Sequence record: DRR723986_4988
Strand: one strand, 5' to 3'
DNA length: 48,959 bases
A model generated the notes under the pieces. The model was given only the letters and a program-made list of their open reading frames with translations, had not been told where the DNA came from and did not search any database. The translations under genes were made by a program, and so were the position numbers. Below are positions 21,202-47,178 of this stretch, in pieces (position 1 is the first letter of the stretch; each line of letters begins with the position of its first letter).

Positions 21202-22143
21202 TCAGGCAGTGGCAGCCGCCTTGTTGTCTTCGATCACCACCGTGAAGAAACCGAGCGCGCGGTATTCCTGGCAGATAATGTCCGCGTAGCTTTGGGAAAA
21301 GTAGTGCCCCACGGTGTAACCCCGCCCGCCGGCAAAGGTATGCGCCTCGACCCCTTTGAGCATCAGGCGGATAGCTTCATCCTGTTCTTCATCCTGCGGT
21401 GCGATAATGACCGGATAGCTTGCCGTTACTGCGTCGCTCGACAGGTACTGGTTGATATTGCCAGTAATTTCGTCAAAGGAGAGCTGTTCCTCGGCGGAGC
21501 AGTCATCGTCGATCTCCACCAGCAGTTTGAGCGCGTCCAGCAGTTGCGCGACCTGGGCGCTGGGCGGTGAGGTGTCAAGGTAGGCCAGCAGGGCGTCCCG
21601 GGTGTCCAGTATGCGGCTATTCTCTGGCTCGATGACCGGGATGTCGCTCCAATCGATATCGATATTCCATTCCTCTGCCATGTGTTCAATCAGTGATCGC
21701 TCCCTCGGGTCCAAAACCCCGTCCACGGCAGCCATGCTGGTCAGTACTCGCAGCAGCTGCGGTGTTGAGGCCGGATTTACCAGGGCTTTCGCGAGGCTGG
21801 ATACTTCTTTCTTTTCACGCGCAATGGAGTTCATTGCGAGGCGCCAAAAGCCCTGCTTGCGTTGGCCCTTGACCCAGAACCCGGCGCCGATCATGCACAC
21901 CAGGATGGCCGAGGTAAGCCAGATGATGCTGTCGATGATGCCCAGCAACTCGCCTTTGTAGAGGAAATAAACCCCGAAGAAGAACAGCGGTATTGATTCA
22001 ACGAGAATGCCTGGAATTGAGATGCTGTCCGCGACCTCGGGCAGGTGCTTGCGCGTCCACAGTTTATTCAGCTGAAGGTAGGCAGCACTGGCGGCGAACA
22101 ACAGGGAACCATAGGCCAATGCATTGATGATGCTTTCCAGCAT
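21202..22143 (-). CDS. Membrane protein with N-terminal 3-TM (PQ-loop-like) region and TerB-like domain
   Basis: Three hydrophobic helices, then MAAVDGVLDPRERSLI and LVEIDDDCSAEEQ (TerB-type acidic motifs). Confidence 0.65.
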   Translation of the reverse strand: MLESIINALAYGSLLFAASAAYLQLNKLWTRKHLPEVADSISIPGILVESIPLFFFGVYFLYKGELLGIIDSIIWLTSAILVCMIGAGFWVKGQRKQGFWRLAMNSIAREKKEVSSLAKALVNPASTPQLLRVLTSMAAVDGVLDPRERSLIEHMAEEWNIDIDWSDIPVIEPENSRILDTRDALLAYLDTSPPSAQVAQLLDALKLLVEIDDDCSAEEQLSFDEITGNINQYLSSDAVTASYPVIIAPQDEEQDEAIRLMLKGVEAHTFAGGRGYTVGHYFSQSYADIICQEYRALGFFTVVIEDNKAAATA

Positions 22144-22675: not shown

Positions 22676-23407
22676 TTACTGGGGTAGCTCCAATTGGGCT
22701 GCGAGGCTTGTTTCCACCATAGTTCCCGCAGGCACATTGATGCTCGCGCCGCCGGTCAGGATCGATGTGCCTGCACCGACTTTCGCGCCGGTCTTGGCGC
22801 CAGAGCTGCCATTGATCAGTCCGCCAATCGCTGCTGCCCGCGCGGTGCGGCCCACGGTTCTGCCGGCTTCGTTTTCAGATTGTGCTTTCAGTCCGCTGGT
22901 GCTGATCTCAAACAGCCGGTCGTCGATCATAATGTCGGTGAATTCAATCGCCATTTCGGAGGAACCGGCCAGCCTGCCCGCCTGTTTAGCCTGGACGATG
23001 CGCCCGTGAACGAAGCTGCCGCGGGGCACCACCGTCACATTATTAACCGTGAGGGCGCCCTCCAGCTGCCCGCGAAAGCGATGCCCGACGCCGTGGCGGC
23101 GTGAGTCAATGGTGTCCGTCAGGCGAATAACCAGTCGTGTGCCTGCCGGTACCGTGAGCATCGACGGTGCGGGCGCGCTTCTTTCCTGCTGGGCGTTGGC
23201 GATACCGGCGCTGAGGAACAGGCCGACCACTTCCTCTTCCGGGAAGGCCTCGATACCGTCGCCGGTATTGAACATGATGATGCCATTGCTGCTGCCGACG
23301 AAGTCGCCCTCCAGCAAGGTGCCATCGGACAGCTCGAGCGTGTCAGCGAACAGCAGCGGAGAGGCGATGAGCAGGGCGGTGGCGACTGTCTTGAACGGGG
23401 TTTTCAT
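22676..23407 (-). CDS. Hypothetical secreted protein with TrbI/VirB10-like beta domain and glycine-zipper segment
   Basis: Signal peptide MKTPFK...LFA-D; TVPAGTRLVIRLTDTIDS, VVPRGSFVHGRI, AAAIGGLINGSSGAKTGAKVGAG, NVPAGT; TGAGG RBS. Confidence 0.7.
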   Translation of the reverse strand: MKTPFKTVATALLIASPLLFADTLELSDGTLLEGDFVGSSNGIIMFNTGDGIEAFPEEEVVGLFLSAGIANAQQERSAPAPSMLTVPAGTRLVIRLTDTIDSRRHGVGHRFRGQLEGALTVNNVTVVPRGSFVHGRIVQAKQAGRLAGSSEMAIEFTDIMIDDRLFEISTSGLKAQSENEAGRTVGRTARAAAIGGLINGSSGAKTGAKVGAGTSILTGGASINVPAGTMVETSLAAQLELPQ

Positions 23408-23607
23408 TACGGCATACCTCAATTGGGGTCATAGCATGGTGGCGGAGAAGGGAAAAGGTAACGCGATGTGGCCCACGGCTCAACTCCGGGGCCAACTCCG
23501 GCACATTCGGCGTGCGTTGCCGGGAAACATCCTGTTGTATAGTGGCCGGCCATCGGGGTGCCTGTCGCGCATGCCGGAACCGGGTGAGAACGTTGAGGGA
23601 GGCAATT

Positions 23608-24106: not shown

Positions 24107-24964
24107 ATGCTGAAACCTGAAGACATGTACCTGGAAGGGAAAACCGCACTGGTCACCGGTGCCGGGCGCGGTATTGGCTTCGCGATCGCCGAAACCCTGG
24201 CTAACTTTAAAGCGGCGGTATTGCTGATTGACCGGGACGAGGCGCTGTTGGCTGCAGCCTGCGAACGGATTACGGCCGCGGGTGGTGCCGCGCAGGCCCA
24301 TGTGCTGGATGTCACCGACAGCGATGCGGTGACTGCGCTGGCGGCGCAGTTCGCCGCCGACGGGCAGGCCATCGATATCCTGGTCAACAATGTTGGTGAT
24401 CACCTGAATCTCATCAAGCCCTTCCTGGAGTCCAGCGAGGAGGAATGGGATGCGATCTATGACATCAATCTCAAGCACATTTTCCGCTGTATTCGGGCTT
24501 TTGCGCCAATCATCCGGGATGCGGGCAGGGGAGGGAGCATCATCAACATATCCTCCATCGAGGGTTATCGGGCGATTCCTACCTGCGCCACTTATGGCGC
24601 AATGAAAACCGCGATATCCGGCTTTGTGCGCAGCCTCGCCATGGAGCTGGCTCCCTATCAGATCCGGGTAAATGCGGTGGCACCAGAGACGACTGAAACC
24701 GAGCAGGTTAATCCCCGTGCCTTTACCCACCCGCAACACCTGCACCATTGGGACATCTGGAATCCCCTCGGTCGCTGGGGGCAGCCCCGGGATACCGCGG
24801 GAGCGGTGCTCTACCTTGCTACCGGCATGGCCGACTGGGTGACCGGTACCACCATCCATGTCGACGGCGGCGCTCTGGCGGCGGCTGGCTGGTACCGCAT
24901 GCCCGGTGAGCAGCAACGTTGGACGCTGGCACCGGTTATTGAGGACAGCGGGTTTATCTACTGA
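24107..24964 (+). CDS. SDR family oxidoreductase
   Basis: ALVTGAGRGIG, NNVG, INISS, YGAMK, IRVNAVAP, VTGTTIHVDGG. Confidence 0.92.
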   Translation: MLKPEDMYLEGKTALVTGAGRGIGFAIAETLANFKAAVLLIDRDEALLAAACERITAAGGAAQAHVLDVTDSDAVTALAAQFAADGQAIDILVNNVGDHLNLIKPFLESSEEEWDAIYDINLKHIFRCIRAFAPIIRDAGRGGSIINISSIEGYRAIPTCATYGAMKTAISGFVRSLAMELAPYQIRVNAVAPETTETEQVNPRAFTHPQHLHHWDIWNPLGRWGQPRDTAGAVLYLATGMADWVTGTTIHVDGGALAAAGWYRMPGEQQRWTLAPVIEDSGFIY

Positions 24965-25117
24965 TGACAGCCTGCCGCCTGCTCATCAGCGGCGGGTCTG
25001 GGGTTCGGCACCCTGGAATTGCCCGGTGCTGGCGGAGTTAGGCGATTCAGGTTAAACCCTTGCACCGATCATGCACTACAATGGGGCCGCCTGCGGTGGT
25101 CGCAAGAGATGGTAGAA

Positions 25118-25933
25118 ATGGCTTCAGACAAACCGGTCAAGGACACGGAGTTCCTCAGTACCCTGGCTCGCGGGTTGTCAGTGCTGCGCTCGTTCTCGCG
25201 TGAGCAGCCGGCGATGACCCTCAGCGAAGTCGCCGTCGCCACCGACCTCAGTCCCGCGGTGGCCAGGCGCTGCCTGCACACGCTGCAGGAGCTTGGCTAC
25301 GTGGGCAAGAAGGGCAAGCAGTTCCTGCTGACGCCCGAGGTAATGAGCTTTGCGTCGGCATTTCTCGAGTCGATGAGCATCGAGGAAGTCATCCGGCCTC
25401 ACCTGCAGATCGTCCGGGACAAGACTGGCGACAGCTCGTCGCTGGCGGTGTTCGCCAATCCGGACGTGCTCTACCTTATTCACGTATCCACCAGTCGGAT
25501 GGTGCGTCTCGCCGCAGGGGTTGGCACCCGCTTTCCGGCCTATGCGACCTCGCTTGGCCGCATTCTCATCGCCCAGTTACCCGATGATCGTGTGGCAGCC
25601 TACCTGCGCGACACCGATATCCAGAAACACACCGACAAGACGATTACCGATCGCAGCCGCTTGCGGCAGATCCTGCTACAGGCGCGCAAGAACGATTACG
25701 CCACAATTCAGGATGAGCTGGATTACGGTATCGTGTCGGTTGCGGTTCCCATTCGCGCGGCCAACGGTGAGGCGATCGCCGCTATCAACTGCTCGACAGC
25801 GACCTCCAGAGTAGAACCGGGTGAGATGCTGTCGACGCGATTGCCGCTGTTGCGCGAGGCGGCCAAGGAAATAGAGATCGAGCTGCAGCGCTATCCGGCA
25901 CTGGTCAATTCTATTCGCGCGCAGAGCGCCTAG
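25118..25933 (+). CDS. IclR family transcriptional regulator (PcaR/PobR-like)
   Basis: STLARGLSVL, MTLSEVA..TDLSPAVARRCLHTL, VGTRFPAYATSLGR, DELDYGIVSVAVP. Confidence 0.92.
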   Translation: MASDKPVKDTEFLSTLARGLSVLRSFSREQPAMTLSEVAVATDLSPAVARRCLHTLQELGYVGKKGKQFLLTPEVMSFASAFLESMSIEEVIRPHLQIVRDKTGDSSSLAVFANPDVLYLIHVSTSRMVRLAAGVGTRFPAYATSLGRILIAQLPDDRVAAYLRDTDIQKHTDKTITDRSRLRQILLQARKNDYATIQDELDYGIVSVAVPIRAANGEAIAAINCSTATSRVEPGEMLSTRLPLLREAAKEIEIELQRYPALVNSIRAQSA

Positions 25934-26757
25934 CGCTTGGTCTCAACGCCAAGACAAAAGCTCAGCACCGCCAGATTATAGCTTTCGGCCTCGGAAAGAT
26001 TGCTCAGGTGACCGCTGTAGGGCAGCACGATCTCCCGGGCATTCGGGATCAGTTCACAGATGCGCTCGGCATGGGCCCTGCGTCCTGCGGTTTCAAGCGC
26101 ACCGGAAATGACCATCGCAGGTGCTGTGAGTTCGGCAAGGCCGGCACTGAGATCGACCGCCGGAGGCGGCGCGCTACTGGCGGTGAGATCCGCGCCGCGG
26201 TACTCACCGACAATGTCTTCGAGCATCCTGGCCAGGGTCGGGTCGCTGATGCCTGCGCTCATCAACGGGTGTTGTAACCAGTCCTCCCGCACCGCTGCCA
26301 TTTGCCCGGCTGCCGCCATGGCCTGGTAGCGGCCCAGTGGTATCTGCTCTGCTGCCGGCTCATCCACTACAAAGCCATCCAGTGGTGCGCCCTGCAGGAT
26401 CAGCGAGCGAATGCGTTCCGGTCGGCTGGCGGCGTAGCGCAGGGCCAGCCTGCCACCCTGGGACACGCCCAGCAGGTGGACGCTGTCAACCGCAAGTGCG
26501 TTAAGCAGGTCCTCAATGTCGTTCTGGTCGGCAGCGAGGTCGGGTGCGGCCTGTGACTGGCCGAAGCCCCGGCGGTCGTAGCTGATGACAGTCAGGGCCT
26601 GGCTCAGCTCCGGGATCTGCAGGTCGAAGGAGTGCCGGTCCAGGGTCCAGCCATGTACCAGCAGCAGGGGCGGGCCCTCGCCCGTAAAGTAGACCCGCAG
26701 GAGTTCGCCATCGCGGCACCGGACTGTGGTGCTGATCACGGGTGTTTCAGGGGGCAT
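25930..26757 (-). CDS. Alpha/beta hydrolase (PcaD-like fold)
   Basis: HGW, YDRRGFG, GVSQGG nucleophile, SGHL; ATG 26757 overlaps the end of the upstream gene. Confidence 0.85.
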   Translation of the reverse strand: MPPETPVISTTVRCRDGELLRVYFTGEGPPLLLVHGWTLDRHSFDLQIPELSQALTVISYDRRGFGQSQAAPDLAADQNDIEDLLNALAVDSVHLLGVSQGGRLALRYAASRPERIRSLILQGAPLDGFVVDEPAAEQIPLGRYQAMAAAGQMAAVREDWLQHPLMSAGISDPTLARMLEDIVGEYRGADLTASSAPPPAVDLSAGLAELTAPAMVISGALETAGRRAHAERICELIPNAREIVLPYSGHLSNLSEAESYNLAVLSFCLGVETKR

Positions 26758-27511
26758 AATCGATGGGTTCCTGAGCGCCTTCCCAGAGGTCGTGGGCAAT
26801 GGGGTTATTCATTTCCTCGAACAGGTGGCCAACCAGGCCGGCGCAGCGTGCGGTGAGAACGATACCGCGCATCATGCCCGCCGGGATCCCGGCTTCCGCC
26901 AGCACCGCGCCGATTGCCGCGCTGATATTCGTCACCAGTTGCTTGCCCAGCACCTCGCCGAGCGTTTGCTCGAGCAGGTTCATCGCCGCAATGTAGTCGC
27001 CCCGGGCACCGGCGTCGCGGCAAACCTGGAGCAAGCGTGCAACCCGAGGATCCAGGGCCTGGTGTATCGGATGACCGAAGCCGGGTACCGGCCGTCGGCG
27101 GGCGCGATAGTCCTCGACCTCGGCCCGAGCCTGTTGTTTGCCGTCGTCGGCCGCCACGATGCGCTCTAGGATCGCACCGCATTCGCTGGCGGTACCGGCA
27201 TAGCGGTCACCAACACCGAGCAGGCCGGCGGCGATCGCGCCCTGGAAAGACTCTGGCGCTCCGTAATGGGTTAGTCGGGTGACTATCGCTGACGGTACCA
27301 GTCCATGTTCCATGATGGTCACCAGCACCGCATCGACAATGCTTACCTGGGTTGCGCTCGGTTCCTTCCCCAGAGCCTGCAGTAGCAGCGCCTGGGTAAA
27401 GCTGCGCTGGCCGATCAGGTCATCGACCAGGTTCTTGCCACGTACATGGATTTCATCGGCATCATAGCCACAGATGGCTGTTGTTCGTGGGGCAGGGGTC
27501 TTGGCTGTCAT
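26747..27511 (-). CDS. Citryl-CoA lyase-like (citrate synthase fold) protein
   Basis: IHVRG, MEHGLVPS, AIAAGLL, VPGFGHP..DPR, ARCAGLVGH. Confidence 0.82.
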   Translation of the reverse strand: MTAKTPAPRTTAICGYDADEIHVRGKNLVDDLIGQRSFTQALLLQALGKEPSATQVSIVDAVLVTIMEHGLVPSAIVTRLTHYGAPESFQGAIAAGLLGVGDRYAGTASECGAILERIVAADDGKQQARAEVEDYRARRRPVPGFGHPIHQALDPRVARLLQVCRDAGARGDYIAAMNLLEQTLGEVLGKQLVTNISAAIGAVLAEAGIPAGMMRGIVLTARCAGLVGHLFEEMNNPIAHDLWEGAQEPIDYAP

Positions 27512-27603
27512 GACCGATCCTCGCAGGGTGTGGGCTGTGTGCAATCGTGCACGATAGCCGTGGTTGGGCGATGCCGCATATAGCTCCTTAGTGTTTATTG
27601 AAA

Positions 27604-27667
27604 TTCGTATATAACTAGAAACTATATGAATTTTCGATATGCGAAGTTGCTTTCGATATACGAAAAG
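27604..27667. promoter_or_regulatory. Tandem palindromic operators TTCG-N5-CGAA (candidate IclR sites) in a divergent promoter
   Basis: TTCGATATGCGAA (27633-27645), TTCGATATACGAA (27652-27664), partial site TTCGTATAT (27604-27612); AT-rich context. Confidence 0.6.
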
Positions 27668-27714
27668 ATTAGTCTAGGGGTGCGTTGCTCAAATATCAAG
27701 CTTGGAGAATAACT

Positions 27715-29943
27715 ATGAAGCCAGCCCTCAAGAAATCCACGGTGCTGCTCACTGCCGCTATCGTCGCCCCGCTGACTATTCCTGTTTCCTTTGCCCAGGG
27801 TGCCCTGGAAGAGGTGGTCGTTTCCGCACGGAAACGCGCTGAAACCCTCGAAGATGCGCCGGTGTCGGTGCGAGCGTTTACCGAATCGGAGATCCGCTCC
27901 GCTGGTATTGAGACGCCGCAGGATTTCATCAACCTCACGCCGAACGTGACCCTGGTCCAGACCCAGAACGCCGGTAACTCGTTCCTTAACATCCGGGGCG
28001 TATCCCAGGCGCGCAATAGCGAATTGTCGGCGGCCGTGCTGGTGGACGGCGTGTTGTTGTCCAACCCGGCCCAGTTCAACCAGCAGCTGTTCGATATCGA
28101 ACAGGTGGAAGTGCTGCGTGGCCCCCAGGGCGCGCTATATGGGCGTAACGCAATCGGTGGCGCTATCACCATCAAGACCAAGCAGCCCTCGGATGAGTTC
28201 GAGGGCCGGCTCGAACTGGGCGCCGACAGTGGCCCCGGCTACAAGGTGCGCGGCAGCGTCAGCGGCCCGCTGGCCGGACTGGATACGGTGAAGTACCGGC
28301 TGTCCGGTTCCTATGTCGATACCGATGGCTTCATTGAAAACGAGACACTGGACGAGGAGGCGGATCCCTACAAGGACACCTCCGCGCGCTTGCGCCTGCT
28401 GTGGGATGCGTCCGATACGTTCAACGCCGACCTGCGCCTGAGTTACTCCAAGCTTGAGACCCAGGCCCTGTACTTCCGGGTCGACGCGGAAGCCGACGAT
28501 ACCAGCAAAGACATTCTCAACAACAACCCCGGTAACAACGAGCGTGAGTTCATCAGTGCCAGCCTCAAGCTGGAATGGCTGTCGGATGTCGGTACCTTTA
28601 CCACTATCACAGCGTACGATGACCTGGAGGAAGTGCTCTCCGGTGATCAGTTCGAATTCGTGCCTCGCGCCGATTCGGGTTTCAACTCCAGCGACTTTGG
28701 GGGCTTCATCAAGTTTCTGACCGGCGATGACGTTACTGACCTGAGCCAGAACCAGTACCTGGAAGTCGAGTCCTGGAGTCAGGAAATCCGCTTTACCTCG
28801 CCGGAGGAAGAGCGGTTCCGCTGGATCGCGGGTGCCTATGCCATTGCCACTGACCGCTACATCTCCACCGGTAACCAGATCGATCGCGGCTTCGGCGTAT
28901 TCGACGTCAAGAAAACCTTCCGTCCGTCGGTGTTCGTCGACCCGACCGATCCCAGCCCCCAGCTGAACATCCTCGCCGACGGCCAGGATAATTTCGCCTG
29001 GGCGGTGTTCGGGCAAATGGCTTACGACGTGACCGACAACATCGAGGCCAGCTTCTCGCTGCGCTATGACGAGGACGAGCGCGAGCAGACGACCCTGACG
29101 CCGCCGCTGTACAACACCTCCGGCCTGGACCTGGTACTGGGTGAAAAGCGCAAGGAGACCTGGGATGAACTGCAGCCCAAGCTGACCGTGCGCTACCAGC
29201 CGAACGATGACATGACGCTGTACGTCGATTACAGCCGCGGCTTCCGCAGCGGTGGCTTCAACCAGTCAGGCGTCGGCGAAGCCGCCGCCACGCCGGGGAT
29301 CGATGACCTGTTCGACGAGCAGGTGTCCGAAACCTACGAGGCGGGTATCAAGAGCTTCCTCTGGGATCGCCGGGTGAGCACCTCGCTGAGCCTGTACTAC
29401 ACCGATTTTGACGGCGCTTACTTCTTCTTCTTCGACCCGGGTACCAGTACCCAGAACCTGGGCTCCATCCCGGAGACCACCTACCTTGGGCTGGAAGCGG
29501 AAGTCAACGCGGCCCTGACCGAGAATATCAGTGTGTACGGCGGCCTGGGTTACACCGACAGCGAGATTGAAAAGTCGGAAAACCCCAGCCAGGAAGGCAA
29601 CCAGGCGCCGCTGGTCTCCGAGTACACCATCAACCTGGGTGGTATGTACCGCCGGCCGATGAATATGTTCGGTGGTGGCATGGACTTCCTCGCCCGCGTG
29701 GATTACTCACGGATTGGCGAGACCTGGTGGGATCCGGACAACATCTCCTCCCGCAGCCCGATCGACCTGGTCGACCTGCGCGTTGGCTTTGAGAGCGACG
29801 AGAGCTGGTCAGTGATGCTGTGGGCCAAGAACGCGTTTGACGAGGAGTACAACACCGAGTTCTCGCCCGGTGGCCCCGGCGCGAACTTCCTGTGGCCGGC
29901 GCTGCCGGCGCGCTATGGCGTCGATATCAATTTCTGGTTCTGA
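27715..29943 (+). CDS. TonB-dependent receptor
   Basis: Signal peptide, EEVVVSARKR, DIEQVEVLRGPQGALYGRNAIGG, GFRSGGFN, C-terminal Phe; GGAG RBS before ATG 27715. Confidence 0.93.
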   Translation: MKPALKKSTVLLTAAIVAPLTIPVSFAQGALEEVVVSARKRAETLEDAPVSVRAFTESEIRSAGIETPQDFINLTPNVTLVQTQNAGNSFLNIRGVSQARNSELSAAVLVDGVLLSNPAQFNQQLFDIEQVEVLRGPQGALYGRNAIGGAITIKTKQPSDEFEGRLELGADSGPGYKVRGSVSGPLAGLDTVKYRLSGSYVDTDGFIENETLDEEADPYKDTSARLRLLWDASDTFNADLRLSYSKLETQALYFRVDAEADDTSKDILNNNPGNNEREFISASLKLEWLSDVGTFTTITAYDDLEEVLSGDQFEFVPRADSGFNSSDFGGFIKFLTGDDVTDLSQNQYLEVESWSQEIRFTSPEEERFRWIAGAYAIATDRYISTGNQIDRGFGVFDVKKTFRPSVFVDPTDPSPQLNILADGQDNFAWAVFGQMAYDVTDNIEASFSLRYDEDEREQTTLTPPLYNTSGLDLVLGEKRKETWDELQPKLTVRYQPNDDMTLYVDYSRGFRSGGFNQSGVGEAAATPGIDDLFDEQVSETYEAGIKSFLWDRRVSTSLSLYYTDFDGAYFFFFDPGTSTQNLGSIPETTYLGLEAEVNAALTENISVYGGLGYTDSEIEKSENPSQEGNQAPLVSEYTINLGGMYRRPMNMFGGGMDFLARVDYSRIGETWWDPDNISSRSPIDLVDLRVGFESDESWSVMLWAKNAFDEEYNTEFSPGGPGANFLWPALPARYGVDINFWF

Positions 29944-29973
29944 CGGACCCTTGAGTCGTATACGGAGACAGCT

Positions 29974-30516
29974 ATGAACGCACCCTTGAGTATTGACAGC
30001 AAGCTGCACCACAACGCCTATGTCACTGAGGACATGGAGGCAGTTCGGCAGTTTTACGAGGAAATCATCGGCTACCCGCTGGTGGCCACCTGGGCAGAGA
30101 AAACCGAGCTGTTCGGGAAAGAGCGCACGTACATGCACTGTTTCTTCGATATCGGTGACGGGTCCTGCCTGGCGTTCTTCCAGTTTGCCGACAAGGATGA
30201 CCACAAGGAATTTGGCCCCGAGCTGCAGCCATCAGGGTTCCGGCATCTGGCGATGAAGGTGGATCAGGAAACCCAGGACGCGATTCTCGAACGCTTGAAT
30301 GCGGCCGGTATCACCGAACCGCAGGCCTACATCCTGAACCACGGTTACTGCTACTCGCTATACGTGTTCGACCCATCCGGCCTGCTGGTTGAGTTTACTG
30401 TTGACCACGAAGCGGTCGACGAGATCAATGCGGGCAAGAAGAAGACGGCGCACGAGGACCTTGCCAAGTGGCTGGCCGGGGATCACACGCCCAATAACGA
30501 ACAGTTTCATCGCTAG
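29974..30516 (+). CDS. VOC (glyoxalase/dioxygenase) family protein
   Basis: LHHNAY, YMHCFF..GDGSCLAFF, HLAM, SLYVFDPSGLLVEF. Confidence 0.88.
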   Translation: MNAPLSIDSKLHHNAYVTEDMEAVRQFYEEIIGYPLVATWAEKTELFGKERTYMHCFFDIGDGSCLAFFQFADKDDHKEFGPELQPSGFRHLAMKVDQETQDAILERLNAAGITEPQAYILNHGYCYSLYVFDPSGLLVEFTVDHEAVDEINAGKKKTAHEDLAKWLAGDHTPNNEQFHR

Positions 30517-30540
30517 ACCGACCAGGAAGGATTCCCTGTT

Positions 30541-31131
30541 ATGAGTAAAACGGTATGTGTCGTTTACCACAGCGGCTATGGCCACACCCTGAAGCAGGCC
30601 GCGGCGATTGCCGACGGCGTGAGTTCCGTGGCGGGTGTTGAGTGCCACTTCATCGCAGTCGAGGCATTGCATGATGCCGAGGCCGGGGAGTGGGATGCGC
30701 TGGATGCGGCGGCGGCAATCGTTATGGGCTCGCCGACCTATATGGGCGCGGCTTCGGCTGACTTCAAGAAGTTCATGGAGTTGTCCTCGGCGCGCTGGAT
30801 GGAACAGCGCTGGGCGGACAAACTGGCCGCCGGGTTTACCAATTCCGGTTCGCAGAATGGAGACAAGCAGAACACGCTGGTGGAACTGCTGACCTTTGCT
30901 GCGCAACACGGCATGCTCTGGATCAGTCTGAATCAGCTCCCCGGTAACAACCATTCCGCCGGCTCGGTCGAAGACCTGAATCGACTGGGTGCCTCGCTGG
31001 GTGCCATGGCGCAGTCCAACGTCGATCAGGGTTCCGATGTAGCCCCGATAAAATCTGATCTTGAAACAGCCCGCGCGTATGGGGCGCGGGTGGCGCGCTG
31101 TGCTTTGCAGTGGAGTCCGGAAGCCGCCTGA
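30541..31131 (+). CDS. Flavodoxin-family (WrbA-like) NAD(P)H:FMN oxidoreductase
   Basis: VYHSGYGHT, GSPTYMG, KLAAGFTNSGSQNGDK, QHGMLW. Confidence 0.9.
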   Translation: MSKTVCVVYHSGYGHTLKQAAAIADGVSSVAGVECHFIAVEALHDAEAGEWDALDAAAAIVMGSPTYMGAASADFKKFMELSSARWMEQRWADKLAAGFTNSGSQNGDKQNTLVELLTFAAQHGMLWISLNQLPGNNHSAGSVEDLNRLGASLGAMAQSNVDQGSDVAPIKSDLETARAYGARVARCALQWSPEAA

Positions 31132-31180
31132 AACAAGGAAAGCCCTGAGAAACTGGAACAATCCATTGGGATGGCCAAGC

Positions 31181-32515
31181 ATGATGTATGACCCGGAAGT
31201 AGAGAAAAGGCCCGTCGAGCAGCAGTACGAAATCGACAAGGTGCAGTACAAGCGCCAGATTGCCTACCTGCTGGGCAACTCGGCCTTCTACCAGAAAAAG
31301 CTCAGGGAAGCGGGCTTCGAGTCGGCCGCGGATATAGGCGGCCTGGATGATATCGCGCGCCTGCCGTTCACTGAGAAGGACGAAATTAGGGCAACCCAGG
31401 CCCTGGCGCCGCCTTTTGGCGCGCATCTGGCTGCCCCTGAGACGGACTTGCGCCGTGTTTTCAGCACCAGCGGCACCACCGGGACCCCGTGTTACCTAGG
31501 GCTTACCGAGCGCGACCTCGAGATTTATGCCACCAACGTGGCTCGTGGCTACACCGCGGCCGGTTTCACCCGCGGCCAGAAAGTCGTGGTCGGCTTTAAC
31601 GCCGGCCCATTTGTCGCCGGCGCGGTTTACTACGGCTTTGACAAAATCGGTTGCTCGGTGATTCCTGTTGGCACCGGCAATACCGAGCGGATGGTCACCG
31701 CAATCCAGAAACTGGGTGCGACCGGGATCAGCTGTACGCCGTCATACGGTCTTTACCTGATTGACTGGTGTCACCAGCACGGCATTGAGACTGGCTCCCT
31801 CGGGCTGAAAAATATGATCACAGCGGGTGAGCCCGGTGGTGGCGACCCCATGGTGCGCGGCAAGATTGAAGAGGCCTTTGGCTGCGTTGTCCGCGAGTCC
31901 ATGGGTATTGGTGACATCACCCTGTCCGCCTGGGCGGAAGACGAGGACGGCAAGGGCATGCATTTCATGCCGCGCGGCTTTGTCCACGTCGAATTGATCG
32001 ACCCGGTCAGCGGGCAGCCGATACCCTGGGTTGACGGCGCAGAGGGAGAGTTGGTGTATACCGCGTTGCAGCGTGAAGCCATGCCACTGCTGCGATTCCG
32101 CAGTCGTGACCATGTGATCGTTACCGTGGCCGACAACCCCACCGGTCGGACCGGGCCCCGGATCCGCTGTGTCGGGCGCACGGACGATATGTTGATTGTG
32201 CGTGGCGTCAACCTGTTTCCCACGGCGATTCGCAGCATACTGGACGATTTCACGCCGGCTGTATCCGGCATGTTCCAGGTCCGGCCGAGGGAGCAAGGTG
32301 TGCTCCAGGTGCCGCCGCTGCCGGTGGTGGTGGAGTTGGGCAAGGACACACCTGAGGCGCCTGAGGGACTGCGCCAGCAGATGGTCGACGAAATTCGTTC
32401 GCGCCTGCTGGTCAGTACAGATGTCCGCTTCGTTGCCTACAATTCGCTGCCGCGAGAAACCTATAAATCCAAACTTGTCGATTACTCTGACTGCGGCCAG
32501 CCTGCGGTCGCGTAA
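31181..32515 (+). CDS. Phenylacetate-CoA ligase (PaaK) family acyl-CoA ligase
   Basis: LPFTEKDE, STSGTTG P-loop, CTPSY, GELVYT, MPLLRFR, GRTDDMLIVRGVNLFP; start ATG 31181. Confidence 0.88.
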   Translation: MMYDPEVEKRPVEQQYEIDKVQYKRQIAYLLGNSAFYQKKLREAGFESAADIGGLDDIARLPFTEKDEIRATQALAPPFGAHLAAPETDLRRVFSTSGTTGTPCYLGLTERDLEIYATNVARGYTAAGFTRGQKVVVGFNAGPFVAGAVYYGFDKIGCSVIPVGTGNTERMVTAIQKLGATGISCTPSYGLYLIDWCHQHGIETGSLGLKNMITAGEPGGGDPMVRGKIEEAFGCVVRESMGIGDITLSAWAEDEDGKGMHFMPRGFVHVELIDPVSGQPIPWVDGAEGELVYTALQREAMPLLRFRSRDHVIVTVADNPTGRTGPRIRCVGRTDDMLIVRGVNLFPTAIRSILDDFTPAVSGMFQVRPREQGVLQVPPLPVVVELGKDTPEAPEGLRQQMVDEIRSRLLVSTDVRFVAYNSLPRETYKSKLVDYSDCGQPAVA

Positions 32516-32531
32516 CTAAGGGGAAACCTCT

Positions 32532-33572
32532 ATGAACGACCTGCCATTATTTCCTTGCACCATTGTAGGCAGCTACCCGCAACCGGAGTGGCTGATAGAT
32601 CGCAAGAAGCTGGCGGGGCGTTTTCCTCCGCGTACCCGGGCCAAGGAGTTGTGGCGGATCGCTCCGGAACTGTTGCTCGAGGCGCAGCGCGACGCCACCC
32701 GTCTGGCGATTCTGGACCAGGAGCGCGCCGGCCTCGACATTATTACTGATGGTGAGGTGTGCCGGGAGAGCTACTCCAATCACTTTGCTACCGCGCTCGA
32801 CGGCATCGACCTGGACAACCCCGGAGAAGCGCTGGATCGCAGCGGAGAGCCGGTTTACGTGCCGCGCATTGTCGGCCCGATCAAGCGGCGTCACCCGGTA
32901 GGGATCGAGGATGTCAGGTTCATGCGAGCCAATACCGACCGCCAGATCAAGATCACGGTACCGGGGCCATTCACCATGGCCCAGCAGGCCCAGAATGATT
33001 TTTACCCGTCAACGCATGAGGCAGCGCTGGCCTATGCCGCCGCCGTCAACGAGGAGGTCAAAGACCTGTTCGCTGCCGGTGCCGATGTGGTCCAGCTGGA
33101 TGAGCCCTATATGCAGGCACGCCCGGAGCAGGCGCGTGAGTACGGCCTGGAGGCGCTGAACCGGGCGCTCGACGGAGTGGATGGCAAAACCTGTGTGCAT
33201 ATCTGCTTCGGCTACGCCGCGCTGATCCATGCACGGCCTGAAGGCTACTCCTACCTGCCCGAACTGGCCGGTGCCTGCTGTAACCAGCTGTCGATTGAAA
33301 CTGCCCAGAGCAACCTCGACTGTACGGTACTGGATGCGCTCCCCAACAAGGACATCCTGCTCGGTGTGATCGATCTCTCTACCGAAGAGGTGGAAAGCGT
33401 GGAAACGATCAAGAACCGTGTGCTGCGAGCCTTGACTCATGTCGATGAGCGTCGGGTGATTCTCGCGCCGGACTGCGGCATGAAGTACTTGCCGCGTGAA
33501 TCTGCTTTCGGCAAGCTCCAGGCCATGGTGCAGGCTGCCCGGGAGCTGAGGGAAACCTTCAAGGCCGGCTGA
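32532..33572 (+). CDS. Half-size cobalamin-independent methionine synthase-like (MetE C-terminal domain) Zn enzyme
   Basis: VGSYPQP, QERAGLDIITDGE, GPFT, QLDEP, HICFG, APDCG; only 346 aa. Confidence 0.88.
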   Translation: MNDLPLFPCTIVGSYPQPEWLIDRKKLAGRFPPRTRAKELWRIAPELLLEAQRDATRLAILDQERAGLDIITDGEVCRESYSNHFATALDGIDLDNPGEALDRSGEPVYVPRIVGPIKRRHPVGIEDVRFMRANTDRQIKITVPGPFTMAQQAQNDFYPSTHEAALAYAAAVNEEVKDLFAAGADVVQLDEPYMQARPEQAREYGLEALNRALDGVDGKTCVHICFGYAALIHARPEGYSYLPELAGACCNQLSIETAQSNLDCTVLDALPNKDILLGVIDLSTEEVESVETIKNRVLRALTHVDERRVILAPDCGMKYLPRESAFGKLQAMVQAARELRETFKAG

Positions 33573-33583
33573 ACCGGCAGTGC

Positions 33584-34345
33584 CTACCAGGGCAGTGGCT
33601 TGCCCTGCCAGTCGTAATATCTCCCGTTATCGGCGGCGTCCAGGCCGCTGATAACGGCGAACAGCCCCGTCGCGCTCTGCTCGGGCGTGATATTGCCCTT
33701 GCCTTCGTTCATGTCGGTCTGCACGTAACCCGGGTGGAGCACGACGAAGCTCATGCCCTCCTTGCCGAAGTCCACTGCCAGGGTAGTGTTGATTGCGTTT
33801 AAAGCTGCCTTGCTCGCCCGGTAGCCGGCGCAACATCCCCAGGTGTTCAGCTCGTTACTGCCCATCATGCTGCTGATGTTGGCGAAGACCTTGCGCTGGC
33901 CCGCCGCCACGTTGGGGTAGAGGGCCTGGATCACCCGCAAGGGTCCCAGCGTGTTCACGTCCAGGGTCTGCATGATGGCATCCACGTCCAGCTCAGCGAG
34001 ATCACCGGAGTCCTCGCCTGCAATGCCTGCGTTGTTGATTACGATGTCGATCGGCACGCCCTTCAGGGTAGCGGCCAGCGCAGTGACGCTGGCCCCATCG
34101 GTCACATCGAGCTGTTCGACCCGGGACCCGGTCGCGGCCAGTGCCGTGGCCTCGCCCGGTTTACGCGCGGTGCCGATCACGGTATAGCCACCGGCGATAA
34201 ATTGTTCAGCCAGGGCGAGACCAATGCCACGGTTGGCGCCGGTAATGAGAACGGTGCCCGGCGGGTCCTCGGCAATAGCGGACGGGGCGGCGAGGCTGGT
34301 AAGCAGCACCAGTGGTAGGCACAGTCTAGCGAGCAGCTGTTTCAT
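33584..34345 (-). CDS. CsgA-like SDR oxidoreductase with N-terminal signal peptide
   Basis: MKQLLARLCLPLVLL...AIA-E leader; TGANRGIG, NNAG, YRASK, LHPGYVQTDM. Confidence 0.88.
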   Translation of the reverse strand: MKQLLARLCLPLVLLTSLAAPSAIAEDPPGTVLITGANRGIGLALAEQFIAGGYTVIGTARKPGEATALAATGSRVEQLDVTDGASVTALAATLKGVPIDIVINNAGIAGEDSGDLAELDVDAIMQTLDVNTLGPLRVIQALYPNVAAGQRKVFANISSMMGSNELNTWGCCAGYRASKAALNAINTTLAVDFGKEGMSFVVLHPGYVQTDMNEGKGNITPEQSATGLFAVISGLDAADNGRYYDWQGKPLPW

Positions 34346-34414
34346 GGTAGTGATTCCCTGTTGTCCGGTTGTCATCAAACGCGATCTTGTCTATCCGCCA
34401 GGTCTGGGCGCAGG

Positions 34415-35107
34415 CTACCAGTCGTGGGTTTCCCCGTTCCATTTCCAGAAGCTGCCGGTGTTGCCACGGTCGAGCTTGCTGACGGTCTGTACAATGCCCG
34501 CGGCACTTTCCTCGGGGGTGAGGTCGGCCGACTTGCCGCCCATATCTGTTTGCACCCAGCCGGGGTGAATCAGGCAGACCAGGACGTCATCGCTGGCCAG
34601 TTCAATCGCCGCCATGCGCATGTACTTGTTGAGTGCGGCTTTCGAACTGCAGTAGGCATAGGCCACGGTCATGTCCAGGGAAATGGCGCCCATCTGGCTG
34701 GTGATATTCACGACCTTCGCCAGCGGCGCGGCAAGCAGGTTGGGCATCAGCGCGTGCATTACGCGAACCGGGGCGTAGGCATTGATGTTCATGGTCTCGG
34801 CCCAGCCATCGAAGTCCATCACCCGGGCTGACTGCTGTTCCCGCGGTGGGCCGCCGGCGCCGGCATTGTTGACCAGGATATCCACGGCAACCCCTGCCAG
34901 GCGTTTCGCCAGCGCGTCTACCGAGGCCTGCTCACCGACCGCTACCTCCAGTACCTCGATCTCCGCGCCGGCAGCCAGTTCGTTCAGCGCGGCCGTATCG
35001 GCGCTCGCGCGGCAACAAGCGTAAACGGTGTGACCCTGGGCGGCGTACTGGCGCACCAACTCGAGTCCAATACCCCGGTTGGCGCCGGTGATGACGATAG
35101 TAGACAT
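34415..35107 (-). CDS. CsgA-like SDR oxidoreductase
   Basis: MSTIVITGANRGIG, NNAG, YCSSK, IHPGWVQTDMGG; ATG 35107. Confidence 0.9.
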   Translation of the reverse strand: MSTIVITGANRGIGLELVRQYAAQGHTVYACCRASADTAALNELAAGAEIEVLEVAVGEQASVDALAKRLAGVAVDILVNNAGAGGPPREQQSARVMDFDGWAETMNINAYAPVRVMHALMPNLLAAPLAKVVNITSQMGAISLDMTVAYAYCSSKAALNKYMRMAAIELASDDVLVCLIHPGWVQTDMGGKSADLTPEESAAGIVQTVSKLDRGNTGSFWKWNGETHDW

Positions 35108-35330
35108 GTGGTTCCCTGCGGTTTGCCGGTGGGCGATCAGACCCAGCTTATAAACAAGCCTTACCGCGGCGCAAGTGTAATGCTGGCTGTGGATCATTAA
35201 ATGCGGGTGAAACTGGCTCGGGAGAATGACTTGAAACCGGCATGGTGCGCTGGGCACAATGGCAGCCCCCGTGACCGCTGCCTGCATCGCCGTGGCCGGG
35301 ATCATCCGGTTTCCACCCCGAGGACCTGTC

Positions 35331-35861
35331 ATGGCAATGAAAGCTGTTCCCCTCTGTTCGCTCGCACTCAGCGCGGTAGTGTTCTGCGAGCTTTCGCTGG
35401 CGGCACCATCCGCAGAGCTGGAGGAGCTCAAGGCCTGTGCCAGGGTGGAGGATCGGGAGGCGCGTTTTAGCTGTTATGAGGCGCTCGGCCAGCGGGTGTT
35501 GGCCGCCGACAGTGAGGCCGGTGCAACCCCGGCAGCCGCAGCCGCGGCGACGTCTGCGGTGGCAGCGCCGGCGGCGGAGGACAGCGCGACGGCTGACACG
35601 ATCGGCGGCTACCGCTTCGAGCAGCGTGAATCCGATGAGGACCCGGACGCGCTGGCGACCCGGGTAGTGGAGTGCCAGAAAAATGTCGAAGGCACCTGGT
35701 ACTTCCGCCTTGAGAACGGCCAGGTCTGGAAGCAGGTCGATCGCCAGACCCTGAATTTCCAGGCTTGTGATTTTCCGGCAACGGTAGGCAAGGACGGCCT
35801 CGGTTACGTGCTAAAGATCGAGGGCCGCAAGGGCAAGATCCGGATTTCCCGGCGTAAATAG
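35331..35861 (+). CDS. Hypothetical secreted protein
   Basis: GAGGA RBS, signal peptide, C-x-rich helix LKACARVEDREARFSCYE, Ala-rich linker, FRLENGQVWKQ beta domain. Confidence 0.75.
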   Translation: MAMKAVPLCSLALSAVVFCELSLAAPSAELEELKACARVEDREARFSCYEALGQRVLAADSEAGATPAAAAAATSAVAAPAAEDSATADTIGGYRFEQRESDEDPDALATRVVECQKNVEGTWYFRLENGQVWKQVDRQTLNFQACDFPATVGKDGLGYVLKIEGRKGKIRISRRK

Positions 35862-40079: not shown

Positions 40080-41202
40080 CCTCGACCATCATGCCGGGAC
40101 GCAGGCGATCCTCTACCTGCTCGATCGAAATCTTGATCGGGATGCGCTGGGTGACCTTGGTGAAATTGCCGCTGGGATTGGCGCTCGGCAGCAGGGAAAA
40201 CTGGCTGGTGGCCGCACCGCCAATTTCGTAAACCTCCCCCTCAAATACCCGGTCCGGGTAGCTGTCGACGGCGAGTTGCGCCCGGGTGCCGATGCGCAGG
40301 TGACGAATCTCGGTCTCCTTGATATTAGCCGCCACCCAGAGGCGCTCGGGGTTGTGGATGAGTACCAGGCGTTGCCCGGGAACCACATATTCACCCTGGT
40401 CAACGAAGGATTTGTCCACGACGCCGGATTCCGGTGCCACGATGCGCAGTTTGTCCATCGCCACCTGCTGGCGATCGATGCGTGCCCGGATCCGGCTCTG
40501 CCCGTGCTCGATGGCGATGCGCTCCTGGGCCAGGACGTTCAACTCGGACTGGGCAGCCTGTGCCTCCAGTACCCCGGCGCGGGCGTTGGCGACATCCGCG
40601 GTGGCGCGTTGCAGCTGCTGGTCGGCCTGGTGCTCGGCGTTGCGGGCACTTTCCCAGCTCTGGGTGGAGATGATCTTCCGTGCCAGCAGCGCTTCGGCGC
40701 GCTCCCATTCGCTGAGCTTGAGCTCCAGGTCGTAGCGCGCGGCTTCCTGTGAGGCCAGGGCGGCCTGCAGTTTGGACTCGGCGGCGGCCAGCGAGCCACC
40801 GGTGCGCTGGGTGACCTGTTCGATCTGCGCCTGCAGCTTGGCCGAACTGGCGATGCTCGCGTCCAGTTCCGCCCGCAGTTCAGCGAGGGTGAAGCGTGCC
40901 TCGCTGTCGTCAATCTGGGCAATCAAGTCGCCGGCAGCAAGTGACTGGCCCTGCTCGATAGGGAAGTGCACCAGCTGGCCGGCCGCCTCTGCGCTCACTT
41001 CGATCATACGCGAGGCAATGCGCGCATCATCGCTATAGACGTGGGTCGCGCGCTGCTGGATCCAGTAGGCCGCAAGCGCGACCAGGCTGACAACCAGCCC
41101 CAGGACGCCGATGGCCTGGAGCTGTCGCTTCCTGCCGACGGGTAACAGGTGCCGGGATCGGGTCTGCTCACTGGCTGTAGTGGTGGGTTCTGGTGCGGTC
41201 AT
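40060..41202 (-). CDS. HlyD/EmrA-type membrane fusion protein
   Basis: VYSDDA, N-terminal TM, coiled coil, ANIKET, FSLLP..N.SGNFTKVTQRIP. Confidence 0.92.
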   Translation of the reverse strand: MTAPEPTTTASEQTRSRHLLPVGRKRQLQAIGVLGLVVSLVALAAYWIQQRATHVYSDDARIASRMIEVSAEAAGQLVHFPIEQGQSLAAGDLIAQIDDSEARFTLAELRAELDASIASSAKLQAQIEQVTQRTGGSLAAAESKLQAALASQEAARYDLELKLSEWERAEALLARKIISTQSWESARNAEHQADQQLQRATADVANARAGVLEAQAAQSELNVLAQERIAIEHGQSRIRARIDRQQVAMDKLRIVAPESGVVDKSFVDQGEYVVPGQRLVLIHNPERLWVAANIKETEIRHLRIGTRAQLAVDSYPDRVFEGEVYEIGGAATSQFSLLPSANPSGNFTKVTQRIPIKISIEQVEDRLRPGMMVEVALEHD

Positions 41203-43503: not shown

Positions 43504-43539
43504 CGAGTCGTCACCTGGCCCGGGTCATGCGCAGGCCCG

Positions 43540-44808: not shown

Positions 44809-44811
44809 GGT

Positions 44812-45591: not shown

Positions 45592-45620
45592 GATCTTGAT
45601 CCTCGATGAGTGTGGTTTGG

Positions 45621-47039: not shown

Positions 47040-47178
47040 TGGACGCTCCTGACAGGCTGTCCCGGCTGGTGGATGGTGTGCTGCTATGTTGCCGATCAGG
47101 GTCTTGCAAGCGCGCTTCCCGGACAAGGTTGCCAAGTGCCACGCGGGGGGTGAAAATGTGCCACATCAGGAGGGTGAT

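Follow-up and report, generated by a model that had tools for sequence, protein, structure and literature searches.

A recurrent IclR-linked gene cluster that combines a half-size MetE-like zinc enzyme with a citryl-CoA-lyase-like protein, a candidate regulon for phenolic acid catabolism

Which compound is handled by an IclR-linked gene cluster that resembles no familiar pathway? The question is raised by a 48,959-nucleotide stretch of DNA from sequence record DRR723986_4988 (the window, by which the whole stretch analyzed is meant), in which an earlier note had described positions 24107-33572 as a self-contained catabolic cluster that matches no recognized pathway. Eight genes at 25109-33572 form one recurrent unit, in which the genes for an IclR regulator, a hydrolase, and a citrate-synthase-fold lyase face an operon that encodes a TonB-dependent receptor, a small VOC-fold protein, a WrbA-like flavoprotein, a PaaK-family CoA ligase, and a half-size MetE-like enzyme, here designated MetE-A (Table 1). 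We give about an even chance to the reading that this unit is a single IclR-repressed regulon through which an oxidation-prone phenolic acid is taken up and broken down; this acid would probably be of the para-hydroquinone or hydroxyquinol type and probably O-methylated.

The recurrent unit and its shared operator

Families were assigned from the open reading frame (ORF) listing with the Pfam and NCBIfam profile libraries, which reproduced all nine family calls of the earlier note, and start codons were refined by aligning stop-to-stop translations with those of the four closest related loci (L001 to L004). The refined starts are 25109 for the IclR gene, 26757 for the hydrolase, 27511 for the lyase, and 27715 for the receptor. 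The longest ORF of the IclR gene begins at TTG 25019, and ATG 25109 was chosen from the alignment. With the refined starts, the lyase and hydrolase genes overlap by 11 bp, and the convergent hydrolase and IclR genes overlap by 4 bp. The gaps reported previously for the rightward operon (30, 24, 49, and 16 bp) are exact when the ligase gene starts at ATG 31181. No set of paa, pca, box, or hmf partner genes is present in the window, as had been claimed, and the window holds no other paa gene beside that for the PaaK-like ligase. An SDR gene upstream of the IclR gene had also been counted as a member, but it is without a counterpart in any related locus; it was rejected as a member of the unit together with two downstream SDR genes, which likewise have no counterparts. 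Because the flanking SDR genes do not recur elsewhere, the unit is taken to extend from the IclR gene to the MetE-A gene.

Table 1. Features of the cluster region, with the basis of each assignment
Feature	Position	Strand	Basis
SDR, upstream of the IclR gene and outside the unit	24107-24964		Pfam/NCBIfam
IclR regulator, PcaR/PcaU/PobR-like, 274 aa	25109-25933	+	HTH_IclR, IclR_C (Pfam); TIGR02431
Alpha/beta-fold hydrolase, distantly PcaD-like, 275 aa	25930-26757	-	Pfam Abhydrolase_1, 97 bits
Short citrate-synthase-fold protein, citryl-CoA-lyase-like, 254 aa	26747-27511	-	NF004868
Divergent control region between the lyase and receptor start codons, 203 bp	27512-27714		Composition
Two tandem operator boxes, TTTCG-N5-CGAA	27632-27645, 27651-27664		Pattern search and alignment
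TonB-dependent outer-membrane receptor, 742 aa	27715-29943	+	Pfam Plug, TonB_dep_Rec_b-barrel
Small VOC-fold protein, probable Fe(II) ring-cleaving dioxygenase for a para-diol, 180 aa	29974-30516	+	PDB 9u42
WrbA-like FMN flavoprotein, probable NAD(P)H:quinone oxidoreductase, 196 aa	30541-31131	+	Pfam FMN_red; PDB 3d7n
PaaK-family acid-CoA ligase, 444 aa	31181-32515	+	TIGR02155; PDB ligases
MetE-A, half-size MetE-like zinc enzyme, probable homocysteine S-methyltransferase, 346 aa	32532-33572	+	Pfam Meth_synt_2, 130 bits

Recurrence was examined in two samples with independent anchors. The first was anchored on MetE-A and comprised 80 loci, from one genome per species, at 61-87% identity to MetE-A. 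Six-frame ORFs of the loci were scored with phmmer against the window proteins and against proteins from a first pass; genes were called with our own heuristic based on GC3 (G+C content at third codon positions) and assigned to families by phmmer score thresholds. A lyase or VOC ortholog lies beside MetE-A in 23 of the 80 loci. Among these 23 cluster loci, the lyase and the VOC protein are each found in 21, a second MetE-like gene, MetE-B, in 18, and the IclR ortholog and the receptor in 14. The CoA enzyme is a PaaK-like ligase in 6 of them and a family III CoA-transferase in the other 17, and none has both. The exact gene order of the window is found in the four nearest loci, from Halioglobus (L001), Congregibacter (L002), and Woeseiaceae (L003 and L004), and a minimal form in Erythrobacteraceae consists of the lyase gene on one side and CoA-transferase, VOC, MetE-A, and MetE-B genes on the other.

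The second sample was a metagenome scan anchored on the VOC family. At least one further cluster member is present on 63 of its 80 contigs, and 14 of the 17 contigs without another member are shorter than 3.5 kb. On contigs of at least 8 kb, the VOC gene is accompanied by a MetE-type gene in 33 of 37 cases, and 28 of the 37 encode a CoA enzyme or the lyase in addition to the MetE-type protein. At the score thresholds used for the first sample, ligase and transferase genes occur together on none of the 35 VOC-anchored contigs that carry a CoA-activating gene. The called genes of 27 loci were also clustered all against all, and no further gene family turned up in more than five of them; the 27 were 25 cluster loci, with the window and L005 counted among them, and two loci (L063 and L068) that hold only a MetE-A/MetE-B pair. 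Represented among the related loci are Halieaceae, Woeseiaceae, Erythrobacteraceae, Sphingomonadaceae, Steroidobacteraceae, and several Actinomycetota. The recurrence for which the earlier note had proposed a gene-neighborhood check is seen in both samples and in at least two phyla. The distribution of the cluster is patchy, and the flanking genes vary among loci. In a locus labeled Erythrobacter sanguineus, a gene for a phage-type integrase (L045:13386-14762) lies about 1.2 kb downstream of MetE-B, which, together with the variable flanks, suggests that the cluster moves horizontally.

The regulator scores 264.7 bits against the PcaR/PcaU/PobR model TIGR02431, narrowly under the cutoff of 284.75. 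The control region that separates the two divergent units has a G+C content of 43%, and its core (27575-27690) one of 35%, compared with 62% for the window; it contains two TTTCG-N5-CGAA boxes, in agreement with the AT-rich divergent promoter with operator palindromes that had been described. The boxes are direct copies, 19 bp apart from start to start, located 51-83 bp upstream of the receptor ATG. Three copies of the pattern are present in the window, whereas 0.21 would be expected from shuffled sequence (2 of 100 shuffles contain three), and all bases of both boxes are invariant in an alignment of the control regions of the window and L001 to L004 that has a mean column identity of only 47%. 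In the set of 80 genome loci, the box occurs in all 14 loci with an IclR ortholog (39 sites, 0.154 per kb), compared with 7 of the 66 loci without one (9 sites, 0.009 per kb). Of the 39 sites, 36 were read by us as lying no more than about 130 bp from the start of a receptor, lyase, hydrolase, VOC, MetE-B, or IclR gene, in nearly all cases on its upstream side. The shared operator points to common regulation of the units, as had been expected, and this comparative evidence argues that the two divergent units, plus MetE-B where it is present, make up one regulon, with the IclR protein as the presumed ligand of the boxes. A promoter scan of 27400-27800 returned one weak promoter-like site on the minus strand, and promoter and terminator scans had no match in 33400-33800. 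No Rfam family, riboswitches included, reached its gathering score anywhere in the window; because there is no riboswitch, MetE-A is not wired here as a methionine-biosynthesis gene.

Protein families and a candidate route

The earlier note had assigned the VOC-fold protein generic metal-dependent chemistry. Its only clear solved relative by sequence, and its best one, is the VOC-type homogentisate 1,2-dioxygenase of PDB 9u42 (7.3e-15). An AlphaFold model built on 21 orthologs (pLDDT 87.8) has the same protein as its best fold match (Z 14.8; root mean square deviation, 2.7; 157 residues aligned; 28% identity), followed by glyoxalase I proteins, the first of them at Z 13.2 with 119 residues aligned and the others at no higher Z with about 120. 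H12, H13, H55, H91, H123, Y130, and E140 are invariant in the 21 orthologs and shared with 9u42. For Acinetobacter sp. Tol 5, the available part of a paper from 2026 (PMC13572102) reports, citing Seo et al. 2025, that this solved glyoxalase-like protein serves as homogentisate dioxygenase, and it places the homogentisate cluster under an IclR-type repressor. By homology, the protein in the window is probably a ring-cleaving dioxygenase for a para-diol aromatic.

The neighboring flavoprotein, previously called a flavodoxin, was reassigned as a WrbA-type NAD(P)H:quinone oxidoreductase. It matches the WrbA-like protein of PDB 3d7n (7.4e-47, 162.7 bits) and then NAD(P)H dehydrogenases (quinone), and it scores 78.8 bits against the WrbA equivalog NF002999, under the cutoff of 141; with these scores, it is regarded as a divergent member of the wider WrbA family. 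Genes for aromatic chemistry recur at the related loci. For example, two actinobacterial loci (L018 and L051) encode a LigB-type extradiol dioxygenase where the VOC protein would be; both lack a WrbA ortholog, and L051 encodes a PIG3-type quinone oxidoreductase. An intradiol dioxygenase gene adjoins the VOC gene in L010, L050, L138, L139, L143, L155, and L170, and ring-cleaving dioxygenases are found in or beside 10 related loci. Of 28 loci, 6 have a class A flavin aromatic hydroxylase gene in their flanks (93 of the 156 unassigned flanking ORFs were scanned), and another such gene is present in L018. This context agrees with ring cleavage of an oxidizable diol or triol. Given the dioxygenase likeness of the VOC protein, the WrbA-type quinone reductase, and the dioxygenases and hydroxylases at related loci, an oxidation-prone phenolic acid is a far more likely substrate than an epoxide, a sulfur compound, or a small aliphatic acid. 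Of the undescribed acid route that had been proposed, a zinc-thiol alkyl-transfer enzyme and a CoA-ester lyase are retained.

The best solved relative of MetE-A is PDB 3rpd (1.8e-54, 188 bits), which is treated as MesD bound to selenomethionine in the available text of Price et al. 2021 (PMC7857596). The zinc ligands of MetE-A (H223, C225, E256, and C315) align with those of 3rpd and of T. maritima MetE and are invariant in 83 of 83 sequences, as are the homocysteine-binding residues S14, E75, and D190 and the MesD-specific Y228 (these amino-acid ligands were mapped by eye on the 3rpd alignment, under the assumption of a three-residue offset from the PDB tag). The divergent MetE-B, of about 375 aa, keeps the H, C, E, C and the S, E, D sets in 26 of 26 sequences. 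Because the ligand sets are invariant, MetE-A and MetE-B are very probably S-alkyltransferases that act on homocysteine or a close analog. MetE-B was found in Woeseiaceae and Alteraurantiacibacter genomes and was not found in the window or, at E values of 1e-20 or better, in the two Halieaceae genomes of the closest loci.

MetE-A was also considered as MesD proper, and this assignment was rejected for low similarity and for the lack of a DUF1852 neighbor in the loci scanned. In the same source (PMC7857596, available text), MesD is defined by about 55% identity (390 bits) to ACIAD3523, and MetE-A is well below this level as judged by proxy from its 188 bits to the MesD structure 3rpd; it reaches no NCBIfam methionine-synthase equivalog cutoff. 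No DUF1852 protein (MesX, PF08908) is encoded in the window, in the scanned genes of nine cluster loci, or among 56 neighboring ORFs of 18 stand-alone MetE-A loci; a search of five carrier genomes gave no match, with control genomes likewise silent. A quick tree of MetE-A (83 rows, with support from the Shimodaira-Hasegawa-like approximate likelihood ratio test) places the ligase-type clusters in one clade with a support of 100, made up of eight rows: seven in clusters and L005, a short contig that carries the ligase and MetE-A genes. Elsewhere in the tree, cluster and stand-alone copies are interleaved, the "cluster" label changing 10 times compared with 20.9 when shuffled. The contexts of the stand-alone copies are varied and include a Rieske LigXa-like oxygenase, a flavin hydroxylase, and a formate-tetrahydrofolate ligase with an RraA-like aldolase.

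It is possible, though doubtful, that MetE-A and MetE-B represent new families of folate- and cobalamin-independent methionine synthases that take a methyl group directly from the catabolized methoxylated aromatic. Candidate donors would be a methoxy-quinone or the aryl ether itself, or a methyl ester arising from ring cleavage. If true, this would amount to an aerobic, cofactor-free O-demethylation in which the methyl group is kept as methionine and not lost as formaldehyde or methanol, and it would hint at the type of donor used by the unexplained MesD/MesX system.

Further genes were observed near MetE-type genes in individual loci. In four loci (L004:10158-11606, L006:12248-13621, L050, and L068), the neighbor of MetE-B encodes a soluble protein that has about 457 aa and matches nothing in Pfam; this protein contains the stretch FDAGMGDGT, which we take to resemble the glycine-rich motif of S-adenosylmethionine-dependent methyltransferases and which is presumably another hint of methyl chemistry. 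Genes of the plant-type O-methyltransferase family (Methyltransf_2; L123:12992-14059 and L168:11699-12763) and a gene for a GcvT-family folate-binding aminomethyltransferase (L150:13933-15327) lie a few kb from VOC and MetE-type genes.

The remaining enzymes of the unit would act, by family, on CoA esters and on ester, lactone, or C-C bonds. The lyase scores 294.6 bits against the citryl-CoA lyase subfamily NF004868, over the cutoff of 193, and matches the Hydrogenobacter citryl-CoA lyase (PDB 6hxp) at 2.6e-32; PGxGH, DPR, and a later Arg are invariant in an alignment of 18 sequences of its family. The ligase, with 231 bits against the PaaK equivalog TIGR02155, is under the cutoff of 646.3. 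The family III CoA-transferases that replace it in most related loci are closest to formyl-, succinate-glutarate, and mesaconate CoA-transferases, and their genes are adjacent or divergent to the lyase gene. Since the transferase displaces the ligase and adjoins the lyase, we infer that the activated acid is the substrate of the lyase or a near precursor of it. Genes for aconitase-family large subunits flank the cluster in two loci (L006:14502-15914 and L158:12741-14111); these genes may encode hydratases acting on products of the maleate or citraconate type, which would in turn supply the CoA-transferase and the lyase. The hydrolase scores 77.8 bits against the PcaD model TIGR02427 (cutoff, 255.85), and its solved relatives are the probable hydrolase 3om8 (1e-20), esterases, arylesterases, and PcaD 2xua (3.1e-12), which is consistent with a distantly PcaD-like esterase, lactonase, or C-C hydrolase. 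The receptor has a signal-peptide-like N terminus and scores 193.9 bits against the siderophore-receptor subfamily TIGR01783, under the cutoff of 223.5.

A candidate route can be drawn from these assignments. Gene content, recurrence, homologies, and the conservation of the operator and of the ligands are observed, whereas every catalytic step, the order of the steps, and the substrate are inferred. The IclR protein would bind the tandem boxes, the conservation of which is observed, and would free both divergent units in the presence of the substrate or an intermediate. The compound would be imported by the receptor, to judge from its family. MetE-A may then convert L-homocysteine into a zinc thiolate that accepts a methyl group from the substrate, or from a methyl ester formed by ring fission, to give methionine and a free hydroxyl or carboxylate. 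Autoxidation of the diol or triol would yield a quinone that the WrbA-like flavoprotein may reduce again, as suggested by its family and by the quinone oxidoreductase that replaces WrbA elsewhere. The VOC protein would use O2 to open the ring, as the VOC-type homogentisate 1,2-dioxygenase does, and the hydrolase would then cut the ring-fission product at an ester, lactone, or C-C bond. The PaaK-like ligase, or in most relatives the family III CoA-transferase, would form the CoA ester of the acid product, which the citryl-CoA-lyase-like protein would split into acetyl-CoA and a 2-oxo acid, as the families and their conserved pairing suggest.

In the full-text literature, most subscription journals and supplements excepted, no published pathway was found that joins a MetE-like enzyme, a citryl-CoA-lyase-like protein, a VOC protein, and an IclR regulator, and the statement that the cluster matches no recognized pathway holds to that extent. 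The available part of a Caulobacter iron paper (PMC3751524) describes a gene set unrelated to the cluster, and that of a preprint on mlp gene clusters (PMC10418091) deals with anoxic corrinoid systems. DmtS of Novosphingobium was considered as a MetE-like precedent and rejected, as it is VanA-like according to the accessible portion of PMC8091115.

Counterevidence and rival explanations

Several observations weigh against a regulon for phenolic acid catabolism. The weakest link is that we could derive from no standard ring-fission product a citrate-like intermediate for a cleavage of the citryl-CoA-lyase type. The roles of the HGGA and NVD-type motifs are known from citrate synthase work, in which HGGA is the oxaloacetate/citrate-site motif. 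The HGGA stretch of the solved lyase is not kept: "saHGGAle" of 6hxp aligns with "drYAGTas" of the window, and the family has no conserved His at this position, with GSVVLGS in most relatives and DRYAGT in the window. The NVD stretch reads NIS, NVN, or NVS. Because HGGA is replaced and NVD is changed, the acyl-CoA substrate of the lyase is probably not citryl-CoA. The ligase is nearly as close to 2-hydroxyisobutyryl-CoA synthetase (163 bits) as to phenylacetate-CoA ligases (191 bits), and the match of the VOC model to 9u42, at 28% identity, exceeds that to glyoxalase I by only 1.6 Z units. Stand-alone MetE-A homologs, with 61-72% identity, occupy 57 of the 83 tree rows and are interleaved with the cluster copies, so that the methyl donor of MetE-A may be general and not a pathway intermediate; MetE-A homologs also occur in genomes without a close VOC ortholog. 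The methyl-transfer step is without precedent, since we know of no MetE-family enzyme that uses an aryl methyl ether or a methyl ester as its donor. Finally, the cluster encodes no inner-membrane transporter. For this reason, and because the MetE-B gene that most relatives carry is absent from the window, the cluster is not fully self-contained.

Among the alternatives, a variant homogentisate pathway of the tyrosine/phenylacetate type survives best, although we consider it unlikely. The VOC protein would be the homogentisate dioxygenase, the hydrolase would replace fumarylacetoacetase, and the ligase or transferase and the lyase would handle C4 products; MetE-A would be a thiol-dependent helper, such as a homocysteine-using maleyl-to-fumaryl isomerase, and not a methyltransferase. 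We know of no thiol-dependent isomerase in the MetE fold, which speaks against this role. The closest solved relative of the VOC protein is a homogentisate 1,2-dioxygenase, and the ligase belongs to the arylacetate-CoA ligase family; however, identity to the Acinetobacter enzyme is only 28%, and the cluster includes neither a maleylacetoacetate isomerase nor a fumarylacetoacetase gene. 4-Hydroxyphenylpyruvate dioxygenase (4-HPPD) is over its cutoff in four of five cluster-bearing genomes and canonical HmgA in only one, a pattern that favors the homogentisate pathway, but the absence of HmgA is weak evidence because the metagenome-assembled genomes are incomplete, and one genome, G004, holds this cluster and a canonical HmgA with an adjoining gene for an FAH-family hydrolase. 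Canonical fumarylacetoacetase was not over the cutoff of TIGR01266 in any of the five carrier genomes, a model that misses the bacterial FAH type of G004. In the incomplete Halioglobus genome G001, in which a canonical homogentisate dioxygenase was not found, a 4-HPPD gene is followed by a gene for a glutathione S-transferase (a possible maleylacetoacetate isomerase), with a divergent Lrp regulator (L084:7660-9439). The homogentisate cluster of Acinetobacter is likewise IclR controlled, according to the available part of PMC13572102, whereas a TonB receptor would be unexpected for an internal tyrosine catabolite.

A supply of methionine, through an O2-dependent, folate- and cobalamin-independent methionine synthase system akin to MesD/MesX, is quite improbable. 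The VOC protein and the flavoprotein would produce the methyl donor from an imported compound, and the other genes would dispose of the carbon skeleton. MesD needs O2 and MesX and is often encoded beside a flavin reductase, in the available text of Price et al. 2021 (PMC7857596). MetE-A, a MesD relative with all ligands conserved, sits in a comparable setting with an O2-using VOC protein and a flavoprotein, and the linkage of VOC and MetE-type genes on the long VOC-anchored contigs is tight. Conversely, control by a PcaR-like IclR protein through catabolic-style operators, with no riboswitch or methionine regulator, is not that of a biosynthetic system, and the receptor, hydrolase, CoA enzyme, and lyase exceed what a methyl-donor system would need. 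The patchy distribution and variable flanks suit an accessory catabolic trait.

A low probability is likewise given to a small non-aromatic substrate, that is, a hydroxy or branched di- or tricarboxylic acid (citramalate-, 2-hydroxyisobutyrate-, or citrate-like) or a methyl ester or lactone of such an acid, in which case the VOC protein would be a CoA-ester epimerase or isomerase and the flavoprotein would have a side role. The CoA enzymes lend themselves to this explanation: the score of the ligase to 2-hydroxyisobutyryl-CoA synthetase, the nearest relatives of the replacing CoA-transferases, the citryl-CoA-lyase type of the lyase, and the aconitase-family genes that flank L006 and L158 would all fit. 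The spacing of the VOC metal ligands can be added, which we take to resemble that of methylmalonyl-CoA epimerase. In contrast, the best relative of the VOC protein is a dioxygenase, a LigB dioxygenase replaces it in L018 and L051 (neither of which has WrbA, with a quinone oxidoreductase in L051), intradiol dioxygenases and aromatic hydroxylases recur beside the cluster, and the regulator is of the aromatic PcaR/PcaU/PobR type. That the genes are chance neighbors that do not act together is barely credible for a set that recurs in at least two phyla and in two independently anchored samples, with a shared operator before each unit.

Read as an IclR-controlled regulon for aromatic catabolism, the cluster offers a real chance of a new enzyme reaction. 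If the phenolic-acid reading is right, a widespread route for phenolic carbon, present in marine and soil-type lineages, is still undescribed, and two enzyme types, a MesD-like core methionine synthase and a short citrate-synthase-fold lyase, would be newly tied to aromatic catabolism, to which, to our knowledge, neither has been linked before. It would also provide a handle on an open question, the methyl donor of folate-independent methionine synthases in aerobes, and would extend the newly recognized VOC-type para-diol dioxygenases beyond homogentisate. A practical test is possible because cultured carriers exist, namely, Alteraurantiacibacter aestuarii JCM 16339, Croceibacterium selenioxidans LX-88, and Pseudonocardia kunmingensis DSM 45301.

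Other genes of the window were recorded alongside the unit. The two downstream SDR genes are tandem paralogs on the minus strand (33584-34378 and 34415-35431), directly after MetE-A, and their products are weakly similar to IsoH, a dehydrogenase of the isoprene pathway (135 and 102 bits, far below the cutoff of 350). A minus-strand operon at 42226-47135 (to 48252 with the AraC gene included), 9 kb from the VOC dioxygenase cluster, encodes a fumarylacetoacetase (442 bits against TIGR01266; cutoff, 375) with an unusual set of partners for this enzyme: a family III CoA-transferase, an enoyl-CoA hydratase, and a benzaldehyde-dehydrogenase-like aldehyde dehydrogenase, followed by a divergent AraC regulator. 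Between this operon and the cluster lies an efflux-pump-like operon (38451-42074) for a MarR regulator, an HlyD-type membrane fusion protein, and a major facilitator superfamily transporter. Two minus-strand ORFs, at 21202-22143 (313 aa) and 22676-23422 (248 aa), upstream of GNAT and SDR genes, have no Pfam or NCBIfam match.

Comparison with known systems

The closest parallel to MetE-A is MesD/MesX, as described in the available text of PMC7857596. Both enzymes are half-size MetE proteins without the folate domain, with the same four zinc ligands and the same Ser/Glu/Asp/Tyr contacts; both belong to aerobes, are encoded near a flavoprotein, and, by context, have an O2-using partner. MetE-A differs in that its gene is part of a catabolic operon under IclR control, which also encodes a receptor, a dioxygenase, and CoA enzymes. 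The VOC-type homogentisate system of Acinetobacter (9u42; PMC13572102, in the part available) shares a VOC protein of about 180 residues with the same His/Glu set, in a cluster that is under an IclR-type regulator and linked to CoA activation. The cluster in the window differs in that it has no 4-HPPD, maleylacetoacetate isomerase, or fumarylacetoacetase gene and adds a TonB receptor, a MetE-like enzyme, WrbA, and the citrate-synthase-fold lyase.

The Hydrogenobacter citryl-CoA lyase (6hxp), which belongs to a two-step citrate cleavage, is similarly short (about 255-265 aa for the two proteins) and has the PGxGH, DPR, and later Arg elements. The lyase family of the window, in contrast, is one of aerobic heterotrophs, and its partner there is a CoA-transferase or a PaaK-like ligase, not citryl-CoA synthetase. 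With the beta-ketoadipate (pca) regulon under PcaR/PcaU, the cluster shares the regulator subfamily, operator arms of the TTCG...CGAA type, and, in the candidate route, a similar succession from an enol-lactonase-family hydrolase through CoA activation to C-C cleavage yielding acetyl-CoA. The regulator and hydrolase of the window are, however, under the equivalog cutoffs, genes for PcaIJ, PcaF, PcaB, PcaC, and PcaGH are missing, and cleavage would be by a citrate-synthase-fold lyase, not a thiolase. Finally, quinone and hydroquinone detoxification sets of the Bacillus subtilis MhqR regulon type comprise a VOC-type dioxygenase, a flavin quinone reductase, and an alpha/beta hydrolase. The cluster has the same trio, to which it adds uptake, CoA chemistry, and a MetE-like enzyme, all under a regulator of the IclR type.

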